Shown here: positions 8,656 through 41,202 of the stretch, piece after piece
Layout of the letters: each line of letters opens with the position of its first letter
Numbering within the stretch: position 1 is the first letter of the stretch
Source of the DNA: a virus
DNA length: 44,514 bases
UHGV virus genome: UHGV-1355725
Reading direction: 5' to 3' (one strand)
Made by a program: the position numbers and the translations under genes
Notes under the pieces: generated by a model
Database searches by the model: none
What the model saw: only the letters and a program-made list of their open reading frames with translations
Told to the model about the DNA's origin: nothing

Positions 8656-8687
8656 TTGCGCACCCCAATATAATAGGGTACTATTCA
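8656..8687 (+). promoter_or_regulatory. class-1 promoter with embedded inverted-repeat operator
   Basis: TTGCGC (8656-8661), 17-bp spacer, TACTAT (8679-8684); inverted repeat AATAG-GGTA-CTATT at 8672-8685; followed by RBS AAGGAG and ATG 8715. Confidence 0.5.
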
Positions 8688-8714
8688 CTCACACCGACAA
8701 TGAAGGAGTTTAAA

Positions 8715-8906
8715 ATGTCCAGTTTACCAGTTTCCTTAATTCTGTTTGCGCTACTAGCCTATTTTGCGCCTTTCCTGGTTGCGTATTTCCGCGACCATAA
8801 AGCGAAGTTAGCGATATTCATGGCCAACCTGTTTCTGGGCTGGATTCTGTTGCCGTGGGTATTTATTTTAATCTGGGCTTGTAACTCGAATGTCAAAGAG
8901 AAGTGA
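8715..8906 (+). CDS. small membrane protein, superinfection-immunity-like
   Basis: 63 aa, two hydrophobic segments; motif YFAPFLVAYFRDHKAKLAIFMANLFLGW...ILIWA resembles the small superinfection-immunity membrane protein family; encoded opposite to the surrounding tail genes. Confidence 0.5.
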   Translation: MSSLPVSLILFALLAYFAPFLVAYFRDHKAKLAIFMANLFLGWILLPWVFILIWACNSNVKEK

Positions 8907-8944
8907 GCTAGTATAGGACAAATCCTAAACACGAGGAAGTAAGC

Positions 8945-10084
8945 ATGGCCCAGAAGAAAATAACCGACGAACAGTTACAGGAAGAATTGAACGCCGGGAT
9001 GAAGAATGTAGACATCGCCCGTAAATACGGCATCTCAGACCGCGTTATTCGTATCCGTAAAGCAAAACTAGCTAAGAAAGGCGTAGGTCATGGGCGTGAC
9101 GTTAGTCACCTTGTGCCAGATGGCTACAAGATTAAGGGCACGTCGTCACTTGTGGACGAGTTCGGCAACACTAAGTTGCAATGGGTTAAGACCGACACCG
9201 ACGCCGAACGTCAGGTTGAATTGATGAAAGCCGTAGTTGAAGGCATGAAGTCAGAGATTACGCCGGTTGCGCCTGTTAAAGCGACTCGCGCCAAACGCAA
9301 CGATAAACTACTCAATCTTTACACGGTATCTGATTTTCATCTCGGTATGCTGGCATGGGCCGACGAGAGCGGCGACGACTGGGATATGAAGATTGCGGAA
9401 GACCTGTTCTCCCGTTGGTTTGATGCTGCATTTCAGAAAGCGCCTGATGCGGGAACAGGAGTTATTAACCTGCTTGGAGACTTCGCGCACTTCGATAGTC
9501 TTGATGCCGTTACCCCTGAGTCGCGTCATGTGTTAGACGCCGATACTCGCTATCAGAAACTAGTTCGCTACATGATTCGTATGGTGCGTCGTGTTGTTGA
9601 TATGGCGCTTGTTAAACATCACACAGTCAAACTCTTAATAGTTCAAGGTAACCACGACCCTGTAGGCTCTGTATGGCTCGCCGAAATGTTCTGTACATTG
9701 TACGATAACGAACCTCGCGTATTTGTGGACACCTCCCCCGACGTATACAAGATGGTCCAGCACGGGAAAACTACGCTATTCATGCATCACGGACACCGTG
9801 CGAGATTCGACGCCATAGAGTCAGTAATGATTTCTAAATTCCGTAAGGCTTTTGGAGAAAGCACATACAGCTACGCTCATGTAGGGCATCTACATCATCA
9901 GAAATTAGTAGAAAGCCGCAATATGGTAGTCGAACAACACCGAACCCTGGCCGCGAAAGATGCTTACGCATCGCGAGGGGGCTGGATGTCCGGTCGTAGT
10001 GCTAACGTGATAACTTATAGCGCCGAATATGGGGAGGTGGCGCGCCTCACAATATCACCTGAAATGATAGGAGGTATAAATTGA
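8945..10084 (+). CDS. HTH domain fused to calcineurin-like metallophosphoesterase
   Basis: 379 aa; N-terminal HTH-like segment (VDIARKYGISDRVIRIRKAK); C-terminal metallophosphoesterase motifs DFHLG, GDFAHFD, GNHD, HHGH, GHLHH; RBS GAGGAAG before ATG 8945. Confidence 0.6.
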   Translation: MAQKKITDEQLQEELNAGMKNVDIARKYGISDRVIRIRKAKLAKKGVGHGRDVSHLVPDGYKIKGTSSLVDEFGNTKLQWVKTDTDAERQVELMKAVVEGMKSEITPVAPVKATRAKRNDKLLNLYTVSDFHLGMLAWADESGDDWDMKIAEDLFSRWFDAAFQKAPDAGTGVINLLGDFAHFDSLDAVTPESRHVLDADTRYQKLVRYMIRMVRRVVDMALVKHHTVKLLIVQGNHDPVGSVWLAEMFCTLYDNEPRVFVDTSPDVYKMVQHGKTTLFMHHGHRARFDAIESVMISKFRKAFGESTYSYAHVGHLHHQKLVESRNMVVEQHRTLAAKDAYASRGGWMSGRSANVITYSAEYGEVARLTISPEMIGGIN

Positions 10085-10554
10085 CATGGAATGACGTTTA
10101 CGAATACGAAAACGGGAATCTTTACGCTAAGAGCAGCGTAAACCCTAAGTACCCGAAAGGACGTAAAGTAGGGTACGTTGACCACCGCGGATATGTAAGA
10201 ACTAAACTAGGATCAAAAATGACATTCGCCCACAGAATTATATGGGAAATGTTTAACGGAGCTATACCAGAAGGCAAGGAGATTGACCATATAAACGGTG
10301 TGAAAAGCGATAACCGTATAGAGAATCTTCGACTGTGCGACCGGCACATAAACTGCAAAAATGCAGCAAAGCGCAGGGATAACTCGTCTGGTGTTACCGG
10401 GGTTAGTAAAACATACAACGGTAAATGGGTCGTTCAAATTCAATATAACGGGAATAGAATAGCCAAGCGTTTCGACCAAAAAGAAGACGCCGTAAGATAT
10501 GCAGAATGTTTTTACAAAGAAAAGAAAGACTTTACTGAGAGGCACGGAAAATGA
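10081..10554 (+). CDS. HNH homing endonuclease (HNH plus AP2-like DNA-binding domain)
   Basis: Motifs HRIIWEMFNG...IDHINGVKSDNRIENLRL (HNH) and GVTGVSKTYNGKWVVQIQYNG...F (AP2-like); TTG start overlapping the upstream stop (TTGA), RBS AGGAGG. Confidence 0.8.
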   Translation: MTWNDVYEYENGNLYAKSSVNPKYPKGRKVGYVDHRGYVRTKLGSKMTFAHRIIWEMFNGAIPEGKEIDHINGVKSDNRIENLRLCDRHINCKNAAKRRDNSSGVTGVSKTYNGKWVVQIQYNGNRIAKRFDQKEDAVRYAECFYKEKKDFTERHGK

Positions 10555-10781
10555 CTTCAAAATACAACCGCACAATGACAAATACTCACGGCAGCACTAT
10601 GACTGTAGACGTTTACGATGTGCTGCGCGCCTTCGACATCCGCGACCCGGCGTTGCAGCACGCATTAAAGAAACTTTTGTGTATGGGCTTGCGTGGGCAC
10701 AAAGACACCGGAACCGACTTAGCAGAAGCAATTGAAAGTCTGGAAAAGTTACGGGAGTATAGAAGCAATATCGACGAATAA
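10551..10781 (+). CDS. hypothetical protein
   Basis: 76-aa ORF, ATG overlaps the HNH stop (ATGA); same insertion operon. Confidence 0.45.
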   Translation: MTSKYNRTMTNTHGSTMTVDVYDVLRAFDIRDPALQHALKKLLCMGLRGHKDTGTDLAEAIESLEKLREYRSNIDE

Positions 10782-17369: not shown

Positions 17370-17620
17370 GTTTCTCCTTTCTCGATAAGTAAAGCCCCGC
17401 CATAAAGCGGGGCGCTAGTCCTTATCATTTAAACATAGAAACGGCGTAATCTCAGTAAACCCGTTACTTTTTACACAAGCAATAGAGTATGGCCCTTCCG
17501 AACGCGTCAGCGTAACTACACTCAGGACTTACGTCCCGCTCCGTTACCTGCCCGCGCCGCGGTCGCTTGTTCATGCTTCACAAGCTCAGGTGGAGCTTAG
17601 CATATTTTCAGTGAAAAGTC

Positions 17621-17636
17621 AACTATTCGAATAGTT
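17621..17636. repeat. 16-bp perfect palindrome AACTATTCGAATAGTT
   Basis: Exact self-complementary 16-mer in the non-coding region upstream of the spanin genes; contains CTATT/AATAG half-sites in inverted order relative to the operator motif. Confidence 0.9.
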
Positions 17637-17688: not shown

Positions 17689-17720
17689 TTGCAGACACCA
17701 ATATAATAGGGTACTATTCA
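17689..17720 (+). promoter_or_regulatory. class-1 promoter with embedded inverted-repeat operator
   Basis: TTGCAG (17689-17694), 17-bp spacer, TACTAT (17712-17717); inverted repeat AATAG-GGTA-CTATT 17705-17718; RBS AGGAGG and ATG 17745 follow. Confidence 0.5.
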
Positions 17721-17744
17721 GTTAACTTAAACAGGAGGCGATAT

Positions 17745-17975
17745 ATGGGTACATACACACATTCTATAAACTGGAAAGGCAGACGTGGTTTGGCGGTTCT
17801 CGAAGGGGGTGTTTCAGGCCCCCACGCGTTTGGGTGGTGGCTAGTGCCATCGTATTCAAACAAACATGGCGGGCAGGACTACGACTGGAATAACGCCGTT
17901 CCTACTAGATTCAAAACAAAGAAAGCCGCGTTGGATGCACGTAAAGAGTTAAGAAAAGGAGGATTATTTTTATAG
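17745..17975 (+). CDS. hypothetical protein (single-gene insertion)
   Basis: 76-aa ORF with own promoter and terminator, on the opposite strand to the flanking late genes. Confidence 0.5.
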   Translation: MGTYTHSINWKGRRGLAVLEGGVSGPHAFGWWLVPSYSNKHGGQDYDWNNAVPTRFKTKKAALDARKELRKGGLFL

Positions 17976-18008: not shown

Positions 18009-18468
18009 ATTCTGGCTTAGTGACCTTCGCCGCTTTGCTTACCACCTCTACACCATCGGCATCGGTAACTTTAACGAAGTATTCACCCGCCGCGTTAACC
18101 GTCAGAGACAAAGCCTCTTCCGGGGCGTTGACTACTTCCTTACCGTCTTTGTACCAGGTCAGCACATATGGCGCTTTGCCCGCCTTAACTTCAACAGTGA
18201 TAGTTGCGCTGCCGTCTGCTGGTTCGACGTCTTTCGGTTGCACCGAGAAGTACACGTCACCCGCGTCCGCCAGATACGGAATCTCATAAAGCATACCCGC
18301 CGCCGGGAGCGCAATACCGGTTTTATCCGCAAACGGCATATCGTCTACCGGTGTACCTAGTACACTTTCATCTTCGATAAATACCACATTCTCGCTAGAG
18401 CCAGACACGCGGGCGTACTGGACTACGCGACGAGAAGGTACATCAGTTACTTTGAAAAAGCCCATCAT
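18007..18468 (-). CDS. Ig-like domain structural protein
   Basis: 153 aa; C-terminal Ig-like segment (ATITVEVKAGKAPYVLTWYKDGKEV...GEYFVKVTDADG); coupled to the head morphogenesis gene. Confidence 0.45.
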   Translation of the reverse strand: MMGFFKVTDVPSRRVVQYARVSGSSENVVFIEDESVLGTPVDDMPFADKTGIALPAAGMLYEIPYLADAGDVYFSVQPKDVEPADGSATITVEVKAGKAPYVLTWYKDGKEVVNAPEEALSLTVNAAGEYFVKVTDADGVEVVSKAAKVTKPE

Positions 18469-20405
18469 TATTCCCCTTTCAGATAATCAGCAACACGTCT
18501 ATCGAGTTCCGCCATCTGCTTAAGCGTGAGCGGATTCCCGAAACCATCTACAGATATTACGCGAAACTCTTCCGGCGATATACCGCTGTTGCGGAAAATC
18601 TTACCCCGCACCGGGCCTAACGCCTGGTCCTGAAACCATGCAGGTTGTTGTTTAAGGAACTCGTAATAAGTGGTGTCCGCACTTACCTGAGTTCCGCCAT
18701 CTGCACCCTTAGCCGCGCGTTTTGCGCCTTTATCCAGGAAGTCGAACTCTGAACTGATTACAGGTGCCGTGGTACTTCGGCAGCCAAAATGGGCTGGGGG
18801 CATTGGCCCTTTACCAATCTCCCACGTCATTCCGTCTCTGGCCCTGCAATTCTTGACTATCGCACTACCTGCTGTATAATATCCTTGACTACTAGAGAGG
18901 GTATAAACATGGCACGTTCTAAACTCGACGCTTATGCGGATGATATTTGTTCTTTGTACCGAGATGGCACTCCCGCCAGCATCATAGCCAAGAATTACGG
19001 CGTCACTACCACCACGGTAACAACATTTCTCAAGAAGCTCGGACTCATGCATGATCGACCCCGTGGTTGGGTTTCTAACGACACCATTTTGAATCAAAAA
19101 AGGGCTATAGAATTGTTCGAGTCCGGCGTCCCGCCTATTGAGTGCATAAGAAGGACCCAAGTCAGCAAAACAGTTTTCTATTCTATGGTCAAAACACTTG
19201 GCCTCGCTAAGCGCGGGCACACTCACAGGACATTCACCCCGGAGGAGAAAATCGCCAGAGCTATCGTCCGACAGCAAAGCGGCGCTATGAATAAGACTGA
19301 AACCATCGCTTTTGAATTGTTTAATTCCGCTGGCGTGGACGTAGTTCCGCAGTTTGCAATCGGCCCGTACAATGTCGATTTTGCCATTGAGTCCCACTCC
19401 ATCGCCATAGAAATCTGTTGCCGCGGGACTCGTGCTTACCATTTTCCTGATGGGGAAATCAGCGAGCGTATTAAAAATATAATCCGCTCTGGCTGGCATG
19501 TTTATGTTCTTCACTGTTTCGAGCACAGTCACTTTGTCAACAGTGGTATACAAGACATGCTTAGTTGGATCGAGTTCATCAAGCGGAGTCCATCCGTATT
19601 GCGTGAGTACAGGGTGTTTCGGGGTGCCACTGAACTTCTCGCCGTTGGAAAGTTCGATGGTAAAGATTTTTCCTGAATAGAGTCCGCGCATTACCGCGTC
19701 CATCCCCGCGATGGGCGCTAATTCTGTTTCAGCCGTGAAACACGTTGTACTGGTACGGCTGTCCAATGTTGATACCCACTCATATTTCTCGATGATGTCG
19801 TCGTTCTGGCGGTACGTCTCGTTACGTGCTTCATTGGACACGTGAGACAGCGCGGTGCGGATTACAGTAGCCGCGTTACGTTCAGAGATGTCAGCCAGTC
19901 CGCCAGCGCCTACAACACTTTTAACAATCTGCCGCGTAGTTTGGCCTTGTACGAAGCCCATCTTAACGCCAGTTACCAGGCGCGCGACTTCTGTTTCACC
20001 CCAACCTGACATCAGCTTGGTGAAGTCAACAGGCTTGTCGCTCAGTGAGAGCGGCTGAAACTCGGCGGCGGCCCACACCTGTTCTGCGGTAGGTGTAACA
20101 AATTCCGCGTTAACGTTGGCGGTCAGTGTCTTTACGTTCCACTCAGCCTCATACTTCGCCAATTCCTTAAGGTCTTCTGTCAGCTTTGTTTGCCAGTCAC
20201 CTGTAAGCCAGGTTAGCGCTTCTTCAAGGTTGAGTAACAGTTTATTCAGTCGCGCAGTGCTCCGCCCGTCGTCGCCGAATAACAGCACCTGCCGTTTGAT
20301 TTCGTCCCGCATTTCCTGAATGAACGGTGCAAGGTCTTTCACTTCTCCGGAAGCGGTTCGTTGCAGCCATATCTGGTGGCTGATTAAGGATGTAAGTAAG
20401 CTCAT
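18468..20405 (-). CDS. head morphogenesis protein (SPP1 gp7 / Mu F-like) interrupted by an intein
   Basis: ATG 20405 with RBS AGGAGG; F-like motifs WVSTLDSRTSTT (before the intein) and GKGPMPPAHFGCRS (after); 298-aa insertion with intein signatures between them; located just after the portal gene. Confidence 0.7.
   Translation of the reverse strand: MSLLTSLISHQIWLQRTASGEVKDLAPFIQEMRDEIKRQVLLFGDDGRSTARLNKLLLNLEEALTWLTGDWQTKLTEDLKELAKYEAEWNVKTLTANVNAEFVTPTAEQVWAAAEFQPLSLSDKPVDFTKLMSGWGETEVARLVTGVKMGFVQGQTTRQIVKSVVGAGGLADISERNAATVIRTALSHVSNEARNETYRQNDDIIEKYEWVSTLDSRTSTTCFTAETELAPIAGMDAVMRGLYSGKIFTIELSNGEKFSGTPKHPVLTQYGWTPLDELDPTKHVLYTTVDKVTVLETVKNINMPARADYIFNTLADFPIRKMVSTSPAATDFYGDGVGLNGKIDIVRADCKLRNYVHASGIKQFKSDGFSLIHSAALLSDDSSGDFLLRGECPVSVPALSEAKCFDHRIENCFADLGPSYALNRRDAGLEQFYSPFLIQNGVVRNPTTGSIMHESELLEKCCYRGGSDAVILGYDAGGSAISVQRTNIIRISVEFRTCHVYTLSSSQGYYTAGSAIVKNCRARDGMTWEIGKGPMPPAHFGCRSTTAPVISSEFDFLDKGAKRAAKGADGGTQVSADTTYYEFLKQQPAWFQDQALGPVRGKIFRNSGISPEEFRVISVDGFGNPLTLKQMAELDRRVADYLKGE
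18853..18880 (+). promoter_or_regulatory. near-consensus sigma70-type promoter inside the intein, antisense to the head morphogenesis gene
   Basis: TTGACT (18853-18858), 16-bp spacer, TATAAT (18875-18880); RBS GAGAGGG and ATG 18909 follow. Confidence 0.5.
18909..19676 (+). CDS. nested antisense gene: HTH domains plus DUF559/Vsr-like (PD-(D/E)xK-type) endonuclease domain, candidate homing endonuclease
   Basis: 255 aa from ATG 18909; two HTH-like segments (IIAKNYGVTTTTVTTFLKKLGL; IECIRRTQVSKTVFYSMVKTLGL); C-terminal YNVDFAIESHSIAIEI...RSGWHVYVL resembling Vsr/DUF559 endonucleases; lies entirely within the intein on the opposite strand. Confidence 0.55.
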   Translation: MARSKLDAYADDICSLYRDGTPASIIAKNYGVTTTTVTTFLKKLGLMHDRPRGWVSNDTILNQKRAIELFESGVPPIECIRRTQVSKTVFYSMVKTLGLAKRGHTHRTFTPEEKIARAIVRQQSGAMNKTETIAFELFNSAGVDVVPQFAIGPYNVDFAIESHSIAIEICCRGTRAYHFPDGEISERIKNIIRSGWHVYVLHCFEHSHFVNSGIQDMLSWIEFIKRSPSVLREYRVFRGATELLAVGKFDGKDFS

Positions 20406-20448
20406 AGGCCCTCCTGTAGTATCGACAGTGTAACGCATAAAAATAATA

Positions 20449-20481
20449 TTTGCAGACACCAATATAATAGGGTACTATTCA
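20449..20481 (+). promoter_or_regulatory. class-1 promoter with embedded inverted-repeat operator
   Basis: TTGCAG (20449-20454), 17-bp spacer, TACTAT (20473-20478); inverted repeat AATAG-GGTA-CTATT 20466-20479; 40-nt block identical to the copy at 17689. Confidence 0.5.
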
Positions 20482-20506: not shown

Positions 20507-20791
20507 ATGACACACAAATTTAAAGGTACAGACGGCGCATGGGTTAATCACGGAACAGCTATCTGGGCGGGGGACGTTTATGTGGCCGAGGTAATGAGTA
20601 TGCGGGAAAAGGACTCCGTAAAATTAGCTAACGCAAAACTTATCACCTCGGCACCCGAGTTACTTGAAGCACTTCGCCAGCTTCGCGATTACGTCGAGGA
20701 TGTTTGTGCAGTATCTTCTGATGATTGCCATGAAGACCATCCATTAAATCGGGCCAACAGAGCAATCAAGAAAGCATTAGGAAAGAAATAA
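20507..20791 (+). CDS. hypothetical protein (single-gene insertion)
   Basis: 94-aa ORF between the head morphogenesis and portal genes on the opposite strand; own promoter and terminator. Confidence 0.5.
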   Translation: MTHKFKGTDGAWVNHGTAIWAGDVYVAEVMSMREKDSVKLANAKLITSAPELLEALRQLRDYVEDVCAVSSDDCHEDHPLNRANRAIKKALGKK

Positions 20792-28751: not shown

Positions 28752-28784
28752 ATGAATAGTATCCTATTATATCTTAGCGTGCAA
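28752..28784 (-). promoter_or_regulatory. class-1 promoter with embedded inverted-repeat operator (minus strand)
   Basis: Minus strand TTGCAC (rc of 28779-28784), 17-bp spacer, TACTAT (rc of 28756-28761); inverted repeat AATAG-TATC-CTATT 28755-28768. Confidence 0.5.
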
Positions 28785-29087
28785 GTAAATTTTATTGGTG
28801 TTTTAAAGATAGTCGTTCACCGCGAATCCAGTAGTACCTCGGGCGTCGCGCCCACTGACGCCAGCGCATAACACGGTACTTGTTGCCGTCTGACGCAACA
28901 ACAAGCCCAAATCGCTTTTCCCCGTTCCTACTGGTCCAGGTTACGATGTCATTCAGTTTCATTGTTGCGTCCCCTGCAATAGTCGCTTCGATTGTTGCGT
29001 TTGGTGAAATAGAATAAAAATGAGAAAAATGATACGCTGCTGTGTAGCAGCGTAAGTCACAAAGCCAAATAGTAACCTATTGACCTG

Positions 29088-29288
29088 TTACATCGGTTTC
29101 GGCGGTTTAGGTACTTTCCTCCAGTGTGTTATATCCTCGTTATCTATGTTGGAGTTGAATTCATCCCAACTATCCCACTCATCCGAATCATCGTCGAACC
29201 ATTTAATCTCAACCTCTTCCCCATCAGTCACAAGTACATGAGAGAAAGGAGTGGGCATCTGCTCACTGCACTTAATCCACTTACTCAT
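29088..29288 (-). CDS. DUF551-like phage protein
   Basis: 66 aa; MSKWIKCSEQMPTP...W...WRKVPKPPKP pattern typical of DUF551. Confidence 0.5.
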   Translation of the reverse strand: MSKWIKCSEQMPTPFSHVLVTDGEEVEIKWFDDDSDEWDSWDEFNSNIDNEDITHWRKVPKPPKPM

Positions 29289-29438
29289 ATCTCACCTCGT
29301 ATTCATCGCAGTTCGCACACCAGCTTTCCACGCCCGCCACGCGAGACGCGTCTTAACGTTCATGTACTCTTTCTTTGAACCTTTGTTAACCGGCAGACCT
29401 TCGACGACGGCCCACCGTTCAAATGCTTCTCTCATAAC

Positions 29439-29630
29439 TTAGTCCTCATCATCTTCTAAGTCAGGGTACACTATGAAATCGCCAAGCCTTTGCAACTCCG
29501 CACCAGCCATAAAATAACCAAGTGCTTCGGCTCTTTCGGAATCTGTTTTAAACTCAGACAGAGGATATCTTTCGTAGAACTTGTTAATTAGTAACGCTTG
29601 GTCAAACTTAGTCGCATCATAATTATTCAT
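29439..29630 (-). CDS. hypothetical acidic protein
   Basis: 63-aa ORF ending DLEDDED. Confidence 0.35.
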   Translation of the reverse strand: MNNYDATKFDQALLINKFYERYPLSEFKTDSERAEALGYFMAGAELQRLGDFIVYPDLEDDED

Positions 29631-29633
29631 AAC

Positions 29634-29825
29634 TTAGCCCTCCAGAATTACATATTCACGTCTACGCACGTACAGTTCCTCACCACAATGTTCGACTGTG
29701 CATCCGTAATCGTTACTGGACGTAGCCTCGAACTCATACCCAACGGATACCCCAAAGTAACGCAGTGGGTGGTCGCCATAACCAGGCGGAAGAACATAAT
29801 CGACATCAGTTATACGAATTTTCAT
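29634..29825 (-). CDS. hypothetical protein
   Basis: 63-aa ORF. Confidence 0.35.
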   Translation of the reverse strand: MKIRITDVDYVLPPGYGDHPLRYFGVSVGYEFEATSSNDYGCTVEHCGEELYVRRREYVILEG

Positions 29826-30028
29826 TCACGGCAACCTCCCTCAGAGTCGTCGGCACGAGCGTCATGATTCGGTGCCGTTCGTAGTGCACGTAAAACTTTT
29901 AGCAATAGCTCGCATGTCCCGGAAGAAATAGTTGGGCCATCTAATAAAACAACCTCGTATCTGTTTACCTGGAAGTGCACCTTCTCCAGTCTATGGTGTT
30001 TCAGTTCTTCAAATAATTCTTCCATCAT
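29822..30028 (-). CDS. hypothetical protein
   Basis: 68-aa ORF overlapping its neighbours by 4 nt. Confidence 0.35.
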   Translation of the reverse strand: MMEELFEELKHHRLEKVHFQVNRYEVVLLDGPTISSGTCELLLKVLRALRTAPNHDARADDSEGGCRE

Positions 30029-30210
30029 TTCGCCCCTTTGAATTTAAAATTGTTGCCGATGAGTTCTATGTCTTTCGCGTACAGGAAACCGTAGTGGATT
30101 CCATTTTTCACCTTAACGAGGTCGTACATTTCTAAGTACCACTCTACGAAGTAAAAATCCCTCGTTCCTTTAACTTTAACCAACTGACCTTTCTTAAACA
30201 TAACCCTCAC
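30025..30210 (-). CDS. hypothetical protein (first gene after promoter)
   Basis: 61-aa ORF directly downstream of the class-1 promoter at 30232-30264. Confidence 0.35.
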   Translation of the reverse strand: MRVMFKKGQLVKVKGTRDFYFVEWYLEMYDLVKVKNGIHYGFLYAKDIELIGNNFKFKGAK

Positions 30211-30231: not shown

Positions 30232-30264
30232 GTGAATAGTAACCTATTATGTTGGGGTGTGCAA
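30232..30264 (-). promoter_or_regulatory. class-1 promoter with embedded inverted-repeat operator (minus strand)
   Basis: Minus strand TTGCAC (rc of 30259-30264), 17-bp spacer, TACTAT (rc of 30236-30241); inverted repeat AATAG-TAAC-CTATT 30235-30248. Confidence 0.5.
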
Positions 30265-30306: not shown

Positions 30307-30362
30307 AGAGTACGCAACGCAGTGGGTGGGCGTCAGCCCACCCCAGCGGAGTGAAGTACTCT
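30307..30362. repeat. nested inverted repeat / structured element in the early intergenic region
   Basis: Outer arms AGAGTAC (30307-30313) and GTACTCT (30356-30362) enclose the hairpin GGGTGGGC-gtca-GCCCACCC (30324-30343). Confidence 0.6.
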
Positions 30363-30639
30363 CTACCTTGCCCACGGCAACTATAGAAACTTTTAATTAT
30401 CAGGTACTTAAGAGATATGCCGCCGGTGTGAATAGAGCTTGCCCAGGGCAACCGGAGATACTAAGGAAGGAAAGTTACGATAATTCATTTGTTCAGTAAT
30501 CTGCCGCTTAACACTTCGCTTGCGCTGGTGCGCCGCTGCGTTTCAAGCGGGTATTACAAGGTGAACAGGAATCAAAGTAACTAAGATATATAAGCACCTT
30601 AAACGAAGATTTTCATAATGTCAATAGGTACGATTATGT

Positions 30640-30668
30640 TTGATTTCCCATTATTCGCAATGTATACT
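30640..30668 (+). promoter_or_regulatory. sigma70-type promoter for the rightward early operon
   Basis: TTGATT (30640-30645), 17-bp spacer, TATACT (30663-30668); ATG 30701 follows. Confidence 0.45.
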
Positions 30669-30700
30669 CAGTTTCGTTAACTGATAATGAGGGTTTGAGA

Positions 30701-33704: not shown

Positions 33705-33723
33705 AAGGGGCGTTAAGCCCCTT
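33705..33723. terminator. hairpin terminator between convergent genes
   Basis: GGGGC-gttaa-GCCCC with T-run on the minus strand; overlaps the stop codon of the XRE gene. Confidence 0.4.
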
Positions 33724-33928
33724 CACCGAACGCCAGCCACTTGGCGTCTACTTGCAGCACTTTAGCCAGTTTAAACAGCGTAGCCGGGCGGACGTCCTGA
33801 GTTACACCGAGTGCCAGCTGGTTAATCGCGCCCTGGGAAACGCCGGTCAGCACCGCCAGACGGCGCTGAGAGAGGCCGAGTTCTTTACGGCGTTGTTCTA
33901 CGCGGATGCCTAGTTCAGATGGTTGCAT
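33713..33928 (-). CDS. XRE-family (Cro/C1-type) HTH transcriptional regulator
   Basis: 71 aa; LGLSQRRLAVLTGVSQGAINQLALG HTH; RBS AAGGAG; divergent from the rightward operon with operator-bearing promoters in the intergenic region. Confidence 0.8.
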   Translation of the reverse strand: MQPSELGIRVEQRRKELGLSQRRLAVLTGVSQGAINQLALGVTQDVRPATLFKLAKVLQVDAKWLAFGEGA

Positions 33929-33956: not shown

Positions 33957-33990
33957 TGAATAGTACCATATTAATTATTTTAGAAAAGCC
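33957..33990 (-). promoter_or_regulatory. class-1-like promoter/operator for the regulator gene
   Basis: Minus strand TACTAT (rc of 33960-33965) with imperfect repeat AATAG-TACC-ATATT (33959-33972); weak -35 (CTTTTC). Confidence 0.4.
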
Positions 33991-33992
33991 CA

Positions 33993-34022
33993 TTGACAAC
34001 ATGAATAGTTAGCTATTATAGT
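33993..34022 (+). promoter_or_regulatory. class-2 promoter with embedded inverted-repeat operator
   Basis: TTGACA (33993-33998), 18-bp spacer, TATAGT (34017-34022); inverted repeat AATAG-TTAG-CTATT 34004-34017. Confidence 0.55.
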
Positions 34023-34054
34023 TAGCCCATACCAAACGAGAGGAGAGAAACAAA

Positions 34055-34516
34055 ATGTTAGAGAAATTCTTAGTATTACTGGAACGTTTCGTAGTTGCGC
34101 ATGAACTGATTGCCGCGAATAGTGCGAAACAAGTTGTCGTTGCTGAAACCGCAACAATCGAGCCTACTGTTGCAGCAAAAGAAATCCCGGTCGAAGGTGA
34201 AGACATCGTTGACACTAAACCAGCAGAAGAAGAGAAGCCGAAACGCAAGCCGCGTAAAGCTAAAGTAGAGGAACCGACGCCAGAGCCGGAAGAAGAGAAA
34301 GAAGAGGTCGATTATAAGTCTCTGCGTGACCAGATTCAGGCTATTGACGATGCGATTAACGAAGGTCCTAGCGATGCCGCGTGCGATGATTCCGATGAAC
34401 TGCTGGAAGAGTTCACCGGCAAGAAGATGAAGATTGCTGCGATTAAAGACGAAGACCTGGCTGAGTACCTGGAACGCCTGACAGCAATCAAGAACAAGTA
34501 TTTCGAAGAAGAATAA
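34055..34516 (+). CDS. acidic hypothetical protein
   Basis: 153 aa, Glu/Asp/Pro/Lys-rich, low complexity; RBS GAGAGGAG; first gene after the class-2 promoter. Confidence 0.5.
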   Translation: MLEKFLVLLERFVVAHELIAANSAKQVVVAETATIEPTVAAKEIPVEGEDIVDTKPAEEEKPKRKPRKAKVEEPTPEPEEEKEEVDYKSLRDQIQAIDDAINEGPSDAACDDSDELLEEFTGKKMKIAAIKDEDLAEYLERLTAIKNKYFEEE

Positions 34517-35037: not shown

Positions 35038-35291
35038 ATTGGATTAGCGTAAACGAAGAATTACCAGAGTCAAAAGATGATTCTGTTTTAGTTTGCTCAG
35101 TAGATGGCAGTAAATATGACGATAACGGATTCCCGGAAGGTGGAGTTGATTTTGTACATATACAGGACTATTTCGACGACATTACTGCTTGGTTGGATGA
35201 AAACGGAAATCAGTTATATACGAAACGGTATGTAGAGATGGGTATAACGCACTGGATGTATTTACCGGAACTACCAGAGGACGTTAAATAA
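35034..35291 (+). CDS. DUF551-like phage protein
   Basis: MNWISVNEELPES...W...YLPELPE pattern; ATG overlaps the upstream stop. Confidence 0.45.
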   Translation: MNWISVNEELPESKDDSVLVCSVDGSKYDDNGFPEGGVDFVHIQDYFDDITAWLDENGNQLYTKRYVEMGITHWMYLPELPEDVK

Positions 35292-36541
35292 TGATTCTTA
35301 AAGAACGTGGTGGCAACAACGATGTACACGCCTTACTGTCGCCGTCTGGCGCTAAAAAGTGGCTAAGCTGTGCGGCGTCACTGGCCTGTGAAAAAGATAT
35401 TCCTAACACGTCCGGTAAAGCTGCGGTATTGGGCACCGCTATGCACACCATAGCGGAGATGCACCTTAACCAGTACATAAAAGGTACTGCGTTACCGTTA
35501 GAGCGTGAAGTCGGTGCTTACGTGCTGGACGAGGGTAAAGGCCAGATTAAGGCGCTAATTAGCCCGATGAAAGGCGCGGTACTGATTACGGCTGACATGA
35601 TTGAGCAGGTGCGCAAGTACACCGACTACTGCAAAGCTGTTATCGATGTAGCGACTTACGCCAAACTCGAGATGCGTGTCAATCTTACTGAGGTATTGCA
35701 TCCAGGGTATGAGGGCGTTGAGACGTTCGGAACCGCTGACCTTGTTGCAGTTCAGGAACTGGCTAACACCGACGAACACATGCTCATTATTGGCGACCTG
35801 AAAACAGGACGACATCGTGTCGAAGCGAAAGAAAACAAACAGCTTATGCTATACGCTCTCGGTGTTTATCGCCGCCTCAAGAGACGCTATAACATCACCC
35901 TTGTTCGTCTGGTTATCTTCCAGCCGTACGCCGAGGGCGCGTCGGAGTGGGACATCTCGGTTGAAGGTCTGGAGCTGTTCGCTAAGTTCGCACAGAAACG
36001 TGCACTGTTAGCGCTTGATGCCTATTCCCGCGGCAAGAAGAACCTGAAAGCGTCTGACTTCAAGCCGTCTGTCGATGGTTGTCAGTGGTGCCGGTTCTCT
36101 GAACAATGCACCGCGCGTACAAAAACCGTTAACTCTGTACTGGCGGAAGAACTGGAGGACGACTTTGCACTGGAACTTACGCCAGAGCAACTCGTAGCTG
36201 AGTATGAGAAGTTGCCGTTGCTGCTCCAGCATATCGACAAGGTCGAGAAAGCTATGGCGGCCGCGTTGCATTCCGGTAAGAAAGTTCCGGGGTACAAGTT
36301 GGTTGAAGGCCGTCCTGGTAATCGTGCGTGGAAAGACGCCGATGCGATTGAAGTGTCACACGGCGACATTCTGAAAAAAGAGGTATTGATGTCCCCTACG
36401 GAGGCAGCAAAAGTTCTTTCGGCGGATGAGATGGCAGCGCTTGAGCCGTTTATTACCCGTAAGCCAGGAGCGCCATGTGTCGCAACGGCGGACGACAAAC
36501 GGCCTGAGTGGCATAAGGTTAGCGAAGAAGATTTAGAATAA
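35291..36541 (+). CDS. PD-(D/E)xK exonuclease, Cas4/RecB-like with Fe-S cysteines
   Basis: 416 aa; motifs GTADLVAV, IIGDLKTG, QLMLYALG; cysteine cluster CAASLAC ... CQWCRFSEQC. Confidence 0.7.
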   Translation: MILKERGGNNDVHALLSPSGAKKWLSCAASLACEKDIPNTSGKAAVLGTAMHTIAEMHLNQYIKGTALPLEREVGAYVLDEGKGQIKALISPMKGAVLITADMIEQVRKYTDYCKAVIDVATYAKLEMRVNLTEVLHPGYEGVETFGTADLVAVQELANTDEHMLIIGDLKTGRHRVEAKENKQLMLYALGVYRRLKRRYNITLVRLVIFQPYAEGASEWDISVEGLELFAKFAQKRALLALDAYSRGKKNLKASDFKPSVDGCQWCRFSEQCTARTKTVNSVLAEELEDDFALELTPEQLVAEYEKLPLLLQHIDKVEKAMAAALHSGKKVPGYKLVEGRPGNRAWKDADAIEVSHGDILKKEVLMSPTEAAKVLSADEMAALEPFITRKPGAPCVATADDKRPEWHKVSEEDLE

Positions 36542-36545: not shown

Positions 36546-36574
36546 TTGACACCTGAATAGTTAGCTATTATAGT
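36546..36574 (+). promoter_or_regulatory. class-2 promoter with embedded inverted-repeat operator
   Basis: TTGACA (36546-36551), 17-bp spacer, TATAGT (36569-36574); inverted repeat AATAG-TTAG-CTATT 36556-36569, identical core to the copy at 34004. Confidence 0.55.
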
Positions 36575-36628
36575 TCTAATCACTGGCCGGGCAGCTTCCC
36601 GGAGTAAACTGAAAAGCGAGAAACTAAG

Positions 36629-37255
36629 ATGGGTATTAAACTGAATCTGCGTAAAGTAAACACTGCATGGGTTAACGTATTCGAACGCGAAAAAGACCGT
36701 GAAAACGATGATGGCTCAATCACTAAAGGCCAGTACAGCGCGACTATCATCCTGCCGTCTGACCATGCTCAAATCGACGCGCTCTACGATACCGTTTACG
36801 CTGTAGTTGAAGAAGCGTTGGGCGCAGCCGCCGCCGAGAAGTGGATGAAGTCCAACTACGGCGAAGGTAAGCACATGGATAAATGCGCTATTAAAGACAT
36901 CGCCGAACGCGACAATCCTTTTGAAGACTTCCCGGAAGGCTTTTACTTCAAAGCGAAGGCACAGAAACAGCCACTGATTGTAACCTCTAAAAAAGGTGAG
37001 ACTCAGGTAGAGCAGGACTTCAACGTAGACGGAGAACAGATTGAAGGTGAACAGGTTTACAGTGGCTGCGTCGCTAACGTAAGCGTCGAAATCTGGTTCA
37101 GCCAGAAATATAAAGTTCTCGGTGTTAACCTGCTGGCGATTAAATACGTTGGTGAGGGTAAAGCGTTCGGTGGTTCTAAAGTCGCTGCAAGTGTCAATGA
37201 CCTGGAAGACGACGAAGAAGATGAAGCACCGCGCCGCGAACGTCGCCGCCGTTAA
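36629..37255 (+). CDS. ssDNA-binding protein (T7 gp2.5-like)
   Basis: 208 aa; overall resemblance to gp2.5-type SSB with acidic C-terminal region DLEDDEEDE; sits between exonuclease and polymerase. Confidence 0.5.
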   Translation: MGIKLNLRKVNTAWVNVFEREKDRENDDGSITKGQYSATIILPSDHAQIDALYDTVYAVVEEALGAAAAEKWMKSNYGEGKHMDKCAIKDIAERDNPFEDFPEGFYFKAKAQKQPLIVTSKKGETQVEQDFNVDGEQIEGEQVYSGCVANVSVEIWFSQKYKVLGVNLLAIKYVGEGKAFGGSKVAASVNDLEDDEEDEAPRRERRRR

Positions 37256-37298: not shown

Positions 37299-37466
37299 CT
37301 AAGGGTCGAAAATCATGTTTTTCTGTAAGCACGTATACCGATATATGAAACCGCTTCCGTGGTACGCGGATGAGTACCGCGCCGGGTACAGGCATGTGTG
37401 GATTTGCCGTGATTGTATGAAAATAAGACTCAGCGAAACGAAGGCAATGGATTTAAGGAAAAAGAA

Positions 37467-40400
37467 ATGAGCTACTTATACCTGGACTTTGAAACATTCT
37501 CCGAAGCCGATTTAAAGAAAGTCGGCTCCTACGCTTACGCCGAACACCCGTCAACCGAAGTTCTTATCTGTACATACGCTTTTGACGACGAGCCTGTACA
37601 GGTATGGGACTGCACAGACGGCAGCGACATGCCTGGGGATTTGCACCGCGCACTACGCCGTCTGGTGAAACCAAACAGCCGCATTAAGATGGTGTGGCAT
37701 AACGGCTCAATGTTCGATCGCCTCATCATGAAACACTGCTGGGGCTTTGATATTCCGGTAAGTAACACCATTGATACGATGATTTGGGCGTTTCGTCACG
37801 CGCTGCCGGGTTCACTTGACGCATTGTGTGAAGTGCTGGGCGTGTCCGCAGATAACGCGAAAGACAAACGTGGCAAGGCGCTGATTCAGCGTTTCTCTAA
37901 ACCTACACCGAAGAACTACAAAATCCGCCGCTACACCGCCGAAACACACCCGGACGAGTGGGCGCTGTTCATCAAGTACGCCGTGAGTGACATCACTGCG
38001 ATGCGCGAAGTATTCCATAAGCTGCCTCGTTGGGGTAACTCAGAGTTTGAAGACCGTGTACTGGAACTGGACCAGTTAATTAACGACCGCGGGTTTAAGG
38101 TTGACGTCGCACTGGCGGAAGCCGCGATCGAAGCCGTGGAGAAGCACAAGACACAGTTACAGGAAGAAGCCCAACGCAAATACGGCGGCTCGCTTACTGG
38201 TAAAGACTTCCTCCCTATTCTGCGTGAACTCGCCCCAGCGCACCGCATCCACAATGCGCAGAAGTCTACGCTGAATGACCTGCTGGCAGACGACGATTTA
38301 CCGGACGACGCCCGCGCGATTATAGAAATGCGCCTCGGGGCCGCGTCCACCGCGTCAACGAAATATAACCCATTGCTATTAGGCCGCTCATCGGACGACC
38401 GTCGCCGCGGTTGTTTACAGTACGGCGGGGCAAAACGTACCCTGCGATGGGCGGGTAAAGGCTTCCAGCCGCAGAACCTGGCGCGCGGTTACTATCACGA
38501 TGATGAACTGGATAAAGGCATTTCTGCGCTACTTAAGGGCCGTGCGCATCGCCGTTTTGATGTAGCCAAGCTAACGGCATCGACGGTGCGTAGCTGCATC
38601 ATACCGGAAGCCGGATATAAGTTTGTCGTCGCCGATTACTCTAACGTTGAAGGCCGCGGGCTTGCGTGGCTGGCGGGCGAAGAAACCGCGCTTGATACGT
38701 TCCGCGCCGGACTGGATATTTACTGTGTAACCGCAGGTAAGATGTTCGGCATGGACCCCGACGATATTAAGAAAGAACGTAAAGACTTGCGCCAGATTGG
38801 TAAAGCGTGCCTTCACCGTCATACCCTAGTTTTGACCGATGGCGGATTTAAGGATATTATGGCGGTTACATCAACAGATAAAGTATGGAGCGGTGAAAAA
38901 TGGGTGAATACAAAAGGCGCGCACCTTATGGGGTGGAAACCGGTAATAAATGTGGACGGGGTGCTAATGACCGAAGACCACAAAATCTTGGCGCATTCCT
39001 GGAAGCAGGCAAAGCAACTCGCTTCAAACAGATATATGATGGGCCTCGCCCTGGAGAGAGGTATGGACGCCTGGTTATCCTGCGCGAGTTACCAAAACGA
39101 CAAGGCCAAAGACAACTACTCGTCCAATGTGATTGCGGAGAGATGCCGTGGCGGGTCTATTACGACAATGTCAGAGCGGGTAAAACCACTCAATGCAACC
39201 GCTGCGCCCTTGAAGCAACAAAAAAATATCGTAAACAGTATTTCTGCTACGAAGACGCAATGCCGGATGATGCGCACAGAACAAGATTACTCAACCGGCT
39301 GTCCGCGGCGATCACGCGAACAACAAGCCCCAGGAATAAGGGTTATAAAAACTATGGTGCCAGGGGCATCACGGTATTCGACCAGTGGAGGACTGATAAA
39401 AGGTCGTTTCTTGGATATGTTCAAACTCTGGAAGGCTGGGACGACCCAAACCTCGAAATGGATAGAATCGACACAGACGGTAACTACGAACCTGGAAACA
39501 TTCGGTTTGTCAGCCGTTCTGAAAACTGCCGAAACAGACGGCAAATACCCGAGCTTCAACGAAAGTATGATGCAGCCGTTGCCCGCATTGCTGAACTTGA
39601 ACGGGAAATTAGCCTATTGCGAGCCGGTGTACGACCTGATTGATGTGGAAGACGGCAACCGTTTTCTTATAGCCTCAGACTCTGGCTTTCTTGTGGCGCA
39701 TAACTGCGAGCTTGGCCTCGGCTATGAGGGGGGTGTCGGTGCTTTCGTTACGTTTGCTAAAAACTTAGGTCTTGACCTTATCGAGATGGCAAAAACAATG
39801 GACGGTACTTTCCCGGGCCACATATGGGCAGCTACCGCACGCGGTTATGAGTGGGCGCGTATCCAGGAAGCAAAGCGACCGCCGCAGCCCGGCGAAAAGG
39901 ACGACCGACCGTCGTATATTTTGGACAAGAAAGTGTGGCGCACATGCGACGCGATCAAGCGTATGTGGCGCGAGTCACACCCGGAAACAGTAGCGTTCTG
40001 GCGCGACCTTAAAGACGGAATTTTAGCCGCTGTGCGTAATCCAGGTCGTGAATTTTGGGCGGGGGCACACTTGCGCAGGAATGGGGAAAGGGCAATCCGC
40101 ATATGGCGTACTGTAGAATTTGATTCATCCGGTAGGAAGGTTCCTGGTTGGTGGTTATGCATGGAGTTGCCGTCAGGCCGCATCCTCTCGTATCCGGGAA
40201 TCGGCGTTAGTGTGACAAAGGAAACAGACGAAGACGGACGGGTAAACACGAATGTGCGAATCAAGTATCAGGGGGAAAACCAGTTAACCCGCCAATGGAC
40301 CACCCTGTACACACACGGCGGCAAGGCCTGCGAAAACATTGTTCAGGCGCTGTGCCGCGATTTACTTGCCTATGCGATGATTAACGTTGAGGGTGGTGGG

Positions 40401-40565
40401 TATCCCATCGTGCTTTCTGTACACGATGAATTGGTATGCGAAACTCCAGATACGCAGGAATACAACGTGGCTGAACTGGAAAAATTAATGTGCGCGTTGC
40501 CGGAATGGGCAGAAGGCTTCCCTCTTGTAGCGGAAGGTGCGGAGATGAAGCGTTATGCTAAGTAA
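37467..40565 (+). CDS. family A DNA polymerase with 3'-5' exonuclease domain, interrupted by an intein
   Basis: Exo motif YLDFETFS, motif A VVADYSNVEGRGLAWL, motif C VLSVHDELV; ATG 37467 with RBS AAGGAA; a 299-aa insertion splits motif B (RQIGKA / CELGLGYEGG). Confidence 0.85.
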   Translation: MSYLYLDFETFSEADLKKVGSYAYAEHPSTEVLICTYAFDDEPVQVWDCTDGSDMPGDLHRALRRLVKPNSRIKMVWHNGSMFDRLIMKHCWGFDIPVSNTIDTMIWAFRHALPGSLDALCEVLGVSADNAKDKRGKALIQRFSKPTPKNYKIRRYTAETHPDEWALFIKYAVSDITAMREVFHKLPRWGNSEFEDRVLELDQLINDRGFKVDVALAEAAIEAVEKHKTQLQEEAQRKYGGSLTGKDFLPILRELAPAHRIHNAQKSTLNDLLADDDLPDDARAIIEMRLGAASTASTKYNPLLLGRSSDDRRRGCLQYGGAKRTLRWAGKGFQPQNLARGYYHDDELDKGISALLKGRAHRRFDVAKLTASTVRSCIIPEAGYKFVVADYSNVEGRGLAWLAGEETALDTFRAGLDIYCVTAGKMFGMDPDDIKKERKDLRQIGKACLHRHTLVLTDGGFKDIMAVTSTDKVWSGEKWVNTKGAHLMGWKPVINVDGVLMTEDHKILAHSWKQAKQLASNRYMMGLALERGMDAWLSCASYQNDKAKDNYSSNVIAERCRGGSITTMSERVKPLNATAAPLKQQKNIVNSISATKTQCRMMRTEQDYSTGCPRRSREQQAPGIRVIKTMVPGASRYSTSGGLIKGRFLDMFKLWKAGTTQTSKWIESTQTVTTNLETFGLSAVLKTAETDGKYPSFNESMMQPLPALLNLNGKLAYCEPVYDLIDVEDGNRFLIASDSGFLVAHNCELGLGYEGGVGAFVTFAKNLGLDLIEMAKTMDGTFPGHIWAATARGYEWARIQEAKRPPQPGEKDDRPSYILDKKVWRTCDAIKRMWRESHPETVAFWRDLKDGILAAVRNPGREFWAGAHLRRNGERAIRIWRTVEFDSSGRKVPGWWLCMELPSGRILSYPGIGVSVTKETDEDGRVNTNVRIKYQGENQLTRQWTTLYTHGGKACENIVQALCRDLLAYAMINVEGGGYPIVLSVHDELVCETPDTQEYNVAELEKLMCALPEWAEGFPLVAEGAEMKRYAK
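38808..39704 (+). mobile_element. intein in the DNA polymerase
   Basis: Begins CLHRHTLVLTDGG, block-B-like GVLMTEDHKILAHSW, ends VYDLIDVEDGNRFLIASDSGFLVAHN followed by extein Cys; the central part of the host frame is open but compositionally non-protein-like. Confidence 0.65.
38900..39643 (+). CDS. HNH-family endonuclease encoded in an alternative frame inside the polymerase intein
   Basis: Codon phase offset by one nucleotide from the polymerase; motifs RYGRLVILREL, CDCGEMPWRVYYDNVRAGKTTQCNRC, YKNYGARGITV, IDTDGNYEPGNIRFVSRSENCRNR; ATG 38900 preceded by GGAG/GGTGA; exact start uncertain. Confidence 0.6.
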   Translation: MGEYKRRAPYGVETGNKCGRGANDRRPQNLGAFLEAGKATRFKQIYDGPRPGERYGRLVILRELPKRQGQRQLLVQCDCGEMPWRVYYDNVRAGKTTQCNRCALEATKKYRKQYFCYEDAMPDDAHRTRLLNRLSAAITRTTSPRNKGYKNYGARGITVFDQWRTDKRSFLGYVQTLEGWDDPNLEMDRIDTDGNYEPGNIRFVSRSENCRNRRQIPELQRKYDAAVARIAELEREISLLRAGVRPD

Positions 40566-40917
40566 ACTGATTATCGCGGTACTGGCGGGATTCGCCGCCG
40601 GGGTCTACTGTCACGAAGGCCAATACGGCATGATTGTCGCCGTATTAGGTATGTTCATCGCAATTTATCTGTGGGTGATGGAATGAAAATTTACTGGTTC
40701 TACGAAGAAGACTGCCGAATCTGTCCGCGCTGTGGTATTGAACATACGAAACGTGAGGGGTGCGTGTTATGACAATGTTTGCATTTTGGACGATAGTAAC
40801 CATGCTCGCACTGTTACTCGGCGCGGGAATAGCCGCGATGTTCTGTTATGGCCTGTTCTTTAAGTTTGTCGGTGTTGCCGTTCTAGGAGGGGCTTTCCTT
40901 ACTTGGGTTCTGCGTTC

Positions 40918-41202
40918 ATGACCCCGGAAGGCAAAATACAGAAATACGCAAAAGAGCGATTCGAGGCCCTTGGGGGCCTCGTACGCAAATTGTCGTACGA
41001 AAATAGAGCAGGAGCGCCCGACCTGCTGGTAATTCTCCCCCGCGGCATCGTCTGGTTCGTCGAGGTTAAGAAAGACGAAAATACGAAGCCTGACCCGCAC
41101 CAGCTACGGGAACACGAGCGGATGCGTAAACGTGGTGCGAATGTTTTTGTCGTTGGTTCGTTTAAACAGGTTGACGACCTAATAGCGAGCTATTATAGTT
41201 AA
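40918..41202 (+). CDS. VRR-NUC domain nuclease
   Basis: Motif GAPDLLVILPRGIVWFVEVKKDEN...QLREHE typical of VRR-NUC. Confidence 0.6.
   Translation: MTPEGKIQKYAKERFEALGGLVRKLSYENRAGAPDLLVILPRGIVWFVEVKKDENTKPDPHQLREHERMRKRGANVFVVGSFKQVDDLIASYYS
41171..41199 (+). promoter_or_regulatory. class-2 promoter with embedded inverted-repeat operator
   Basis: TTGACG (41171-41176), 17-bp spacer, TATAGT (41194-41199); inverted repeat AATAG-CGAG-CTATT 41181-41194; lies within the 3' end of the VRR-NUC gene. Confidence 0.5.

Follow-up and report, generated by a model that had tools for sequence, protein, structure and literature searches.

Putative operators for a Cro-like XRE protein at early and middle promoters of a virulent Kagunavirus

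The viral genome UHGV-1355725, analyzed here over its whole length of 44.5 kb (hereafter the window), comes from a virulent Kagunavirus (Guernseyvirinae), a phage of Escherichia coli. Its right half is about 90% identical to Escherichia Kagunavirus phages, e.g., vB_EcoS_fPoEco01 (fPoEco01) and K1ind2/3, and is also similar, at lower identity, to many Salmonella Jerseyvirus genomes; about 480 records of a phage collection matched this half. Pfam searches with the large open reading frames (ORFs) of the window detected a primase-helicase (AAA_25), a family A DNA polymerase, an SNF2-type helicase, a DUF2800 nuclease, an Enc34-type ssDNA-binding protein, a portal-like protein and a Mu-F-like head protein, and the annotated relatives share the gene layout of the window. 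The annotations of the related genomes fPoEco01, Ent2 and Jersey include neither an integrase nor a repressor with the Peptidase_S24 domain. Scattered along the window is an inverted repeat, AATAG-N4-CTATT (AATAGNNNNCTATT), and the window also encodes a 71-amino-acid (aa) helix-turn-helix (HTH) protein of the XRE family. We propose that the elements carrying the repeat are sigma70-type promoters with single operators, probably serving this XRE protein as the phage's own Cro-like repressor. Two arrangements occur: in class 1 the repeat would overlap the -10 hexamer, and in class 2 it fills the spacer between the -35 and -10 hexamers. The sites and the XRE gene are as follows.

8656..8687, plus strand: class 1 promoter-operator with the repeat at 8672-8685, found by pattern match, with homologous sites at fPoEco01 15038 and Ent2 15796; downstream on the plus strand lies an operon of an imm-like gene (start probably 8715), a metallophosphoesterase gene (8945..10084) and ORFs 10081..10554 and 10551..10781
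17689..17720, plus strand: class 1 promoter-operator with the repeat at 17705-17718, preceding a single 76-aa gene (17745..17975)
20450..20481, plus strand: class 1 promoter-operator with the repeat at 20466-20479, preceding a 94-aa gene (20507..20791)
28753..28784, minus strand: class 1 promoter-operator with the repeat at 28755-28768, reading into leftward small genes (28724 downwards) and on into putative lysis genes
29068..29081, minus strand: orphan exact repeat without a -35, a -10 or a ribosome-binding site, between the stop of ORF 29088..29288 and a terminator hairpin (29054-29033)
30233..30264, minus strand: class 1 promoter-operator with the repeat at 30235-30248, preceding a leftward small-gene operon (30210..29088)
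33713..33928, minus strand: gene for the 71-aa XRE/HTH_3 protein, followed by a terminator-like hairpin (33724-33704)
33959..33972, minus strand: imperfect operator, AATAT-GGTA-CTATT (AATATGGTACTATT), in the XRE gene's own class 1-like promoter, with the -10 TACTAT and a weak -35
33993..34023, plus strand: class 2 promoter-operator, TTGACA-N18-TATAGT, with the repeat at 34004-34017, divergent from the XRE gene
36546..36575, plus strand: class 2 promoter-operator, TTGACA-N17-TATAGT, with the repeat at 36556-36569; the homologous site is an annotated promoter in Jersey
41171..41200, plus strand: class 2 promoter-operator, TTGACG-N17-TATAGT, with the repeat at 41181-41194

The repeat is real and highly non-random. 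Nine exact copies, starting at 8672, 17705, 20466, 28755, 29068, 30235, 34004, 36556, and 41181, were counted in 44.5 kb, against a mean of 0.04 and a maximum of 1 in dinucleotide-preserving shuffles. An unbiased count of all 5-Nx-5 palindromes also placed it first among the spaced palindromes of the window, no other reaching more than 3 copies. An initial annotation of this DNA had listed nine promoter-like elements sharing the repeat; it is exact in eight of them, while the ninth, the XRE gene's own promoter, has one mismatch. The exact repeat at 29068-29081 was absent from that list and makes a tenth site of the family. The class 1 pattern given there matches at 8656 and 17689, and it also matches at 20450, 28753-28784 and 30233-30264, each one base away from the coordinates first assigned (20449, 28752, and 30232). 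It could not be fitted to the site placed at 33957, which has the one-mismatch repeat and a poor -35. The class 2 pattern, with TTGACR and the repeat separated by N4, matches at 36546 and 41171, and at 33993 only with an N5 gap. A ribosome-binding site and a start codon, said to stand close by every element, do come 26-39 nt past the repeat in eight of the nine promoters, the leader being longer at 36556.

The position of the repeat relative to the promoter hexamers differs between the two classes, and the earlier statement that it lies between the -35 and the -10 holds for class 2. There, the hexamers are 17 or 18 nt apart and the repeat fills the spacer, only its last T being common to the -10. 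When the plus strand of the 20-kb right half is ranked by agreement with the sigma70 consensus, all three class 2 sites fall in the top four, with scores of 11/12 (33993 and 36546) and 10/12 (41171). For class 1 the statement fails, as the hexamers originally proposed (TTGCRS and YATAAT) are just 7 nt apart and unusable for sigma70. Class 1 is better read as TTGCAS-N17-TACTAT, with the right half-site giving four bases of the -10, which is a 7/12 match (3/6 plus 4/6) and falls below the threshold of the sigma70 scan. A perfect TATAAT also overlaps the left half-site, with no -35 at 16-18 bp from it; owing to the weak hexamers and to this alternative -10, the start site and the operator position of class 1 are uncertain. 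Counting from the assigned hexamers, class 2 operators would be centered at about -18.5 and class 1 operators at about -12.5, positions that RNA polymerase would cover in either case. The gap between the -35 and the repeat is 4-5 nt for class 2 and 10-11 nt for class 1, and Kagunavirus orthologs differ in it from those of Jerseyvirus as well. On its opposite strand, class 2 shows the asymmetric core of class 1, TATAATAG-N4-CTATTCA, so what both classes share is the palindrome plus the bases next to it, whichever way this element faces the -35. An RNA or DNA hairpin was ruled out, because the stem is just 5 bp long and AT-rich and because the repeat, standing upstream of the predicted start sites, would not be transcribed. 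The repeat of the Ent2 imm region has a -35-like hexamer 7 nt away on either side; bidirectional promoters sharing a palindromic -10 were nevertheless rejected, since most sites, and the homologous site of the window, have a one-sided -35.

Independent evidence for a bound protein comes from conservation. Orthologs of the promoters were sought by their 30-nt flanks only, i.e., blind to the repeat, in 50 related loci (38 Kagunavirus and 12 Jerseyvirus), and ranges of variants per column were taken from the six promoter sets in which 24 or more orthologs were found. Five of these sets had 0.0-0.2 variants per column in the half-sites and 2.25-4.25 in the central N4; the flanks had 0.9-4.7. Specifically, half-sites and center had 0.20 and 2.25 variants at the 28753 ortholog (29 loci), 0.10 and 2.50 at the 30233 ortholog (37 loci), 0.00 and 4.25 at the 33993 ortholog (36 loci) and 0.10 and 2.50 at the orthologs of 41171. 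The set of the ssb promoter (36546) was noisier, with 1.80 for the half-sites against 3.25 for the N4, apparently through misaligned indels, and in the set of the XRE promoter the central N4 had 0.25. In the Jerseyvirus phages Ent2 and Jersey, the motif stands at the homologous promoters and is extended to TAATAG-N4-CTATTA, and in the Cornellvirus PhiSTP1 a variant, AWTAC-N4-CTAAT, occupies the same places. Such a pattern is the one expected of a dyad contacted by a protein at its half-sites and left uncontacted at its center, and would not be the mark of sigma70 contacts or of recent duplication alone. The earlier suggestion that the repeat is the operator of a dimeric phage regulator overlapping the core promoter is thus supported by the repeat-blind orthologs, in which variation is concentrated in the N4 and the flanks and largely spares the half-sites.

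The set of promoters is narrower than the genome-wide regulon that had been proposed. The likely promoter of the primase operon at 30640 (TTGATT-N17-TATACT) lacks the full palindrome, as do the likely promoters of presumed late genes at 25984 (TTGACT-N17-TATATT) and about 17618. Because these promoters are without it, the elements are seen as an early and middle regulon of the phage, as far as promoter sequences can tell. Each of the three candidate sigma70 promoters (25956-25989 and about 17600-17631 on the minus strand, 30622-30668 on the plus strand) has a single AATAG or ACTAG half-site, which touches the -35 or sits just upstream of it, e.g., AATAGTTGACT. The same half-site-only arrangement is found in Jerseyvirus (Jersey 42338, an annotated promoter).

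The 71-aa XRE protein, already singled out by the initial annotation, stands up as the candidate binder. It consists of an HTH domain alone (Pfam HTH_3, E-value = 5.6e-13). Its best solved relative by sequence is 434 Cro, also of 71 aa (E-value = 9.7e-7 over residues 6-68), followed by the 434 repressor and, lower, by P22 c2. An AlphaFold model has five helices (pLDDT 77.5), and its top Foldseek matches are the DNA-binding domain of the 434 repressor and 434 Cro (1pra, 2cro, and 3cro; TM 0.75-0.78). The model rests on a shallow alignment, because the search for homologous proteins gave only close relatives with at least 77% identity. The surroundings of the gene are likewise suggestive: between it and the opposite operon lie two sites 45 bp apart, 33959 with one mismatch and 34004 exact. 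The mismatch at the XRE promoter is fixed, reading AATAT in 37 of 37 Kagunavirus loci and, more degenerate still, ATTAC (ATTAC-TGTA-CTATT) in 10 of 10 Jerseyvirus loci (L043-L052); in Jerseyvirus the operator of the divergent promoter also has a fixed mismatch (AATCG). The weak sites of the XRE region appear to be kept by selection and not to be decaying.

The strongest support for this candidate comes from homologues in temperate-phage loci. Viral contigs were scanned for relatives of the XRE protein, which were found in Guernseyvirinae and in seven other loci at 34-46% identity (L054, L059, L061-L064, and L068; 99.7 kb in total, 46-64% GC), probably from other hosts. The homologues of L054 and L061, the two that were scanned with Pfam, combine HTH_3 with Peptidase_S24. 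The strict palindrome AWWAG-N4-CTWWT has 21 matches in the seven loci, where 0.67 would be expected. Eleven of them lie within 120 nt upstream of the repressor gene (0.006 expected), and the other 10 lie within 2.6 kb downstream of it, in pairs 24-26 bp apart; elsewhere in the seven loci there is no match. The resulting pairs on both sides of the gene give an OR/OL-like layout. No such site lies close to the gene in control loci whose homologues have other recognition helices, among them two lambdoid phages whose QQSIQ helix is 434-like. One downstream operator of L054 is placed in a promoter, TTGACA-N7-ATTAG-N4-CTAAT-AT, which matches the architecture seen in the window, with the operator in the spacer and overlapping the -10. 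Since the sites adjoin the homologue genes only, this clade of XRE-type HTH proteins is, judging from genomic association, linked to the AWWAG-N4-CTWWT operator type, which supports the XRE protein as the candidate binder of the window.

From these data we infer binding by the XRE protein, its dimerization, the sign of the regulation and its timing. A dimer would place one recognition helix (residues 32-39, QGAINQLA) in the major groove of each half-site, and the 4 bp in the middle would stay free of contacts, as they do in the operators of P22 and 434. Because the operator lies over the -10 TACTAT in class 1 and fills the spacer in class 2, the bound protein would exclude RNA polymerase. The XRE protein would be made from a single-gene unit whose own operator has a crippled distal half-site and, as it accumulates, would turn down two to three replication operons as well as the early small-gene operons and three cassettes of accessory genes. 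The promoter of the XRE gene itself, like the repeat-free ones of the primase operon and the presumed late genes, would largely escape, and the low affinity of its operator would let synthesis of the XRE protein continue while the other promoters are shut. Such a circuit would act as a Cro-like global shut-off or as a feedback timer.

Several observations weigh against this interpretation. The site at the XRE promoter is imperfect in all three genera, which is not classical tight autorepression; we read it as a tuned low-affinity operator, but it could equally count against autoregulation. The recognition helices read SQGAINQL in Kagunavirus, SQSLITHL in Jerseyvirus and TQSAISHL in Cornellvirus. 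Kagunavirus and Jerseyvirus thus differ at four positions while their motif is identical, and the Cornellvirus helix is closer to that of Jerseyvirus, yet its motif differs, so there is no simple co-variation between helix and half-site, and no code relating helix residues to half-site bases could be derived from comparison of the three genera. Other small HTH proteins are encoded in the window, e.g., by an ORF at about 30810/30840-31010. Finally, the class 1 hexamers are poor sigma70 matches that the scan missed.

Some of these points lead to other explanations. The palindrome may be the operator of a different protein, which could come from the host or be a second HTH protein of the phage, e.g., the product of the MerR/excisionase-like ORF that lies upstream of the primase. 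The second small HTH ORF (about 30810/30840-31010) matches PHROG families of DNA-binding proteins and regulators, and a motif that stays unchanged while the XRE helices differ between Kagunavirus and Jerseyvirus would suit a binder other than XRE. We nevertheless find this unlikely: no other protein is linked to the motif, whereas the XRE clade is specifically tied to AWWAG-N4-CTWWT pairs by its own gene in seven independent loci. As for host factors, we know of no E. coli regulator whose consensus fits the repeat, FNR (TTGAT-N4-ATCAA), ArgR (ARG box), Fur (Fur box) and CRP included.

The elements might also be related sigma70 promoters kept alike by descent, duplication and cassette recombination, the palindrome being an unbound by-product of AT-rich -10-like hexamers (TATAAT, TACTAT, and TATTAT). 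This would agree with the class 1 anatomy, in which the CTATT half-site contributes to the -10 and the left half-site coincides in part with TATAAT. Duplication does occur, as the cassettes at 17689 and 20450 are almost identical, and the GenBank record of Jersey (KF148055) annotates three homologous sites simply as sigma70-like promoters. In class 2, however, the repeat lies in the spacer and has just one base in common with the -10, and across diverged orthologs the half-sites are far more conserved than the center and the flanks. The repeat also persists at varied offsets from the -35, and once without any promoter, and in temperate-phage loci unrelated to the window, operators of this type stand beside the homologous CI genes. 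We therefore hold shared ancestry without a binding protein to be improbable as the whole explanation.

A third possibility accepts that the XRE protein binds the repeat but makes it an activator, at least at the class 1 promoters. Their weak -35 (TTGCAS), with only 3/6 consensus positions, would leave room for activation, and some of the HTH_3 proteins that neighbor the model in structure, e.g., the controller proteins of restriction-modification systems, can activate. On the other hand, a site at about -12.5 or -18.5 falls within the stretch covered by the polymerase. Where activators are known to work from there, they do so by spacer remodeling of the MerR type, and XRE is not of the MerR family according to Pfam. 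The class 2 promoters, moreover, are already near consensus, and activation seems very improbable to us.

The motif and several of the promoters have already been reported. In the Kagunavirus fBC-Eco01, PHIRE found seven copies of tgAATAGTa-ccTATTat-T, which the authors assigned to a phage RNA polymerase (PMC9825357); a similar element, TAATAGTACCCTATTATGTT, was reported for the Salmonella phage SGP-C (PMC8790156), and PHIRE also gave seven elements in phage Golestan (PMC7203180). Phage-specific promoters read by a phage-encoded RNA polymerase, as stated or implied in these PHIRE-based genome papers, have in our view next to no likelihood, since no such gene is annotated in fPoEco01, Ent2, PhiSTP1 or Jersey, none was found by Pfam among the scanned large ORFs of the window, which encode replication and morphogenesis proteins, the sites carry the canonical TTGACA-N17/18-TATAGT, and PHIRE detects repeated sequences only. 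The motif has thus been misattributed to a phage RNA polymerase, or else left as a regulatory element of unspecified kind. In the temporal RNA-seq of the Kagunavirus K1B4, a gene with an HTH domain (K1B4_008), which may be the XRE ortholog, is among only four early-peaking genes (PMC12645636). Neither the dyad symmetry nor the two geometries nor the connection with XRE is mentioned in any paper that we found, and literature searches for transcription-start data or for the literal motif string returned nothing relevant.

The genes behind the sites are of several kinds. The operon at 8656 is an accessory operon on the plus strand inside the minus-strand tail genes. Its imm-like superinfection-immunity gene is named after phrog_1039 (immunity to superinfection) and its metallophosphoesterase after Metallophos_2. 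The 76-aa and 94-aa genes are plus-strand insertions within the minus-strand head-gene operon, the latter (phrog_1273) sitting between the portal and head-morphogenesis genes, where fPoEco01 has no gene. Although the two genes are unrelated, their upstream regions (17689-17735 and 20450-20496) are nearly identical over about 47 nt comprising promoter, operator and 5' untranslated region (5'UTR), which looks like a portable expression module for accessory genes. More speculatively, and with little probability in our estimation, accessory genes would acquire this class 1 cassette and so join the XRE timing. It is equally speculative that, the operator being of the specificity family of temperate-phage CI repressors, the CI of a matching prophage could silence the early program of the phage and give prophage carriers a repressor-based immunity against a lytic phage, or that prophage switches could in turn be targets of the XRE protein; we found no prophage of E. 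coli or Salmonella whose repressor matches.

On the minus strand, the putative lysis genes that follow the 28753 operon are named by synteny with fPoEco01, and the 30233 site has homologues at Ent2 38425 and at Jersey 39910, the latter a promoter annotated in GenBank. The orphan repeat at 29068 is located 14 nt upstream of the terminator hairpin, at the end of the early leftward operon. It is found in 7 related loci, usually after two tandem GGTGTAACAGGT repeats (e.g., 'tggtgtaacaggtggtgtaacaggtcAATAGG' sequences), and could be a roadblock, an auxiliary operator or the site of another protein. Between the divergent early-left and primase operons, about 440 nt (30260-30700) are non-coding and contain several hairpins and a CTTGCCC-N3-GGCAAC element repeated 71 nt apart. 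This stretch has no Rfam match and might be an origin of replication or an unrecognized RNA; no tRNAs or known RNA families were found within the window.

On the plus strand, the 33993 promoter serves the genes from 34055..34516 through the DUF2800 nuclease gene (35291..36541), and the 36546 promoter those of the Enc34-type ssDNA-binding protein (36629..37255) and the DNA polymerase (37413..40565), both identified by Pfam. The 5'UTR of the former, the ssb gene, contains a hairpin at 36589-36604 (CCGGG-cagctt-CCCGG). It is kept in all three genera, Kagunavirus, Jerseyvirus, and Cornellvirus, one pair being compensated from G-C to U-A in 2/5 sequences, and may be a translational operator for autogenous control. 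The 41171 promoter serves 41233..41391, 41409..41600 and the SNF2-type helicase gene (41597..43021). Its repeat at 41181 is not intergenic, as it lies within the last 10 codons of a 99-aa ORF (40903..41202; VRR-NUC by synteny with fPoEco01), and the homologous site is likewise inside the VRR-NUC genes of fPoEco01 and Jersey; the stretch 41171-41202, being the coding end of this ORF, is therefore under both coding and regulatory constraint. Two of the large ORFs probably carry inteins. The Mu-F-like head-morphogenesis ORF (18468..20462, minus strand) has 664 aa, against 347 aa in fPoEco01, with a weak Intein_splicing match, and the DNA polymerase ORF (37413..40565, plus strand) has 1050 aa, with its Ent2 homologue annotated as intein-containing.

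The closest known systems are the Cro-CI circuits of phages 434 and P22, in which Cro turns down early promoters during lytic growth. They share with the window a small five-helix HTH_3 protein, 434 Cro being of the same length, and a regulator gene placed in a divergent region together with operators. A dyad operator with two half-sites around an uncontacted center, overlapping the core promoter, is also common to them and, as predicted from sequence, to the window. The operators of 434 are 14 bp long and the P22 consensus core is TTAAG-N4-CTTAA; the half-site of the window differs from the ACAA of 434. Unlike 434 and P22, the phage of the window is virulent, with no cI partner annotated in related genomes and no lysogeny switch, and its operators stand singly, where 434 and P22 have OR1-3 and OL1-3 in tandem. 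At least nine promoters over 33 kb carry them, including those of accessory cassettes in the structural operon. The CI-type repressors of the seven temperate-phage loci have the same 5-N4-5 geometry (ATTAG/AATAG/ATAAG-N4-CTAAT/CTATT/CTTAT), but their operators are paired on both sides of the gene, and those of L054 and L061 carry the Peptidase_S24 autocleavage domain.

Single scattered sites for one repressor are known from P1 C1 and from the "stoperators" of mycobacteriophage L5 gp71, where the sites are asymmetric, the proteins belong to other families and lysogeny is kept. The window resembles these systems in its dispersed single sites, and the orphan 29068, in a transcribed region before a terminator, recalls a stoperator; it differs from them in that its sites are symmetric and the phage is lytic. 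The controller (C) proteins C.AhdI and C.BclI are also small dimers of the XRE family, with palindromes over their own promoter and a role in timing, and they are structural neighbors of the XRE model, with Foldseek E-values and identities weaker than those of 434 Cro and the 434 repressor. They differ in controlling a single operon through paired sites at about -35, with activation followed by repression.

A repressor-operator mechanism is thus familiar, and here it takes a dispersed, single-operator form in a subfamily of virulent phages; the general concepts of phage regulation would remain unchanged. Kagunavirus and Jerseyvirus are among the most often isolated phages for therapy and biocontrol of E. 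coli and Salmonella, their transcription program is essentially undescribed, and Guernseyvirinae have also been proposed as a small chassis for synthetic biology. If our interpretation is true, it would provide a simple wiring diagram of early and middle control together with compact repressible promoter parts, and it would mean that a strictly lytic phage has retained one half of a lysogeny switch, the DNA-binding one, and uses it for global timing.

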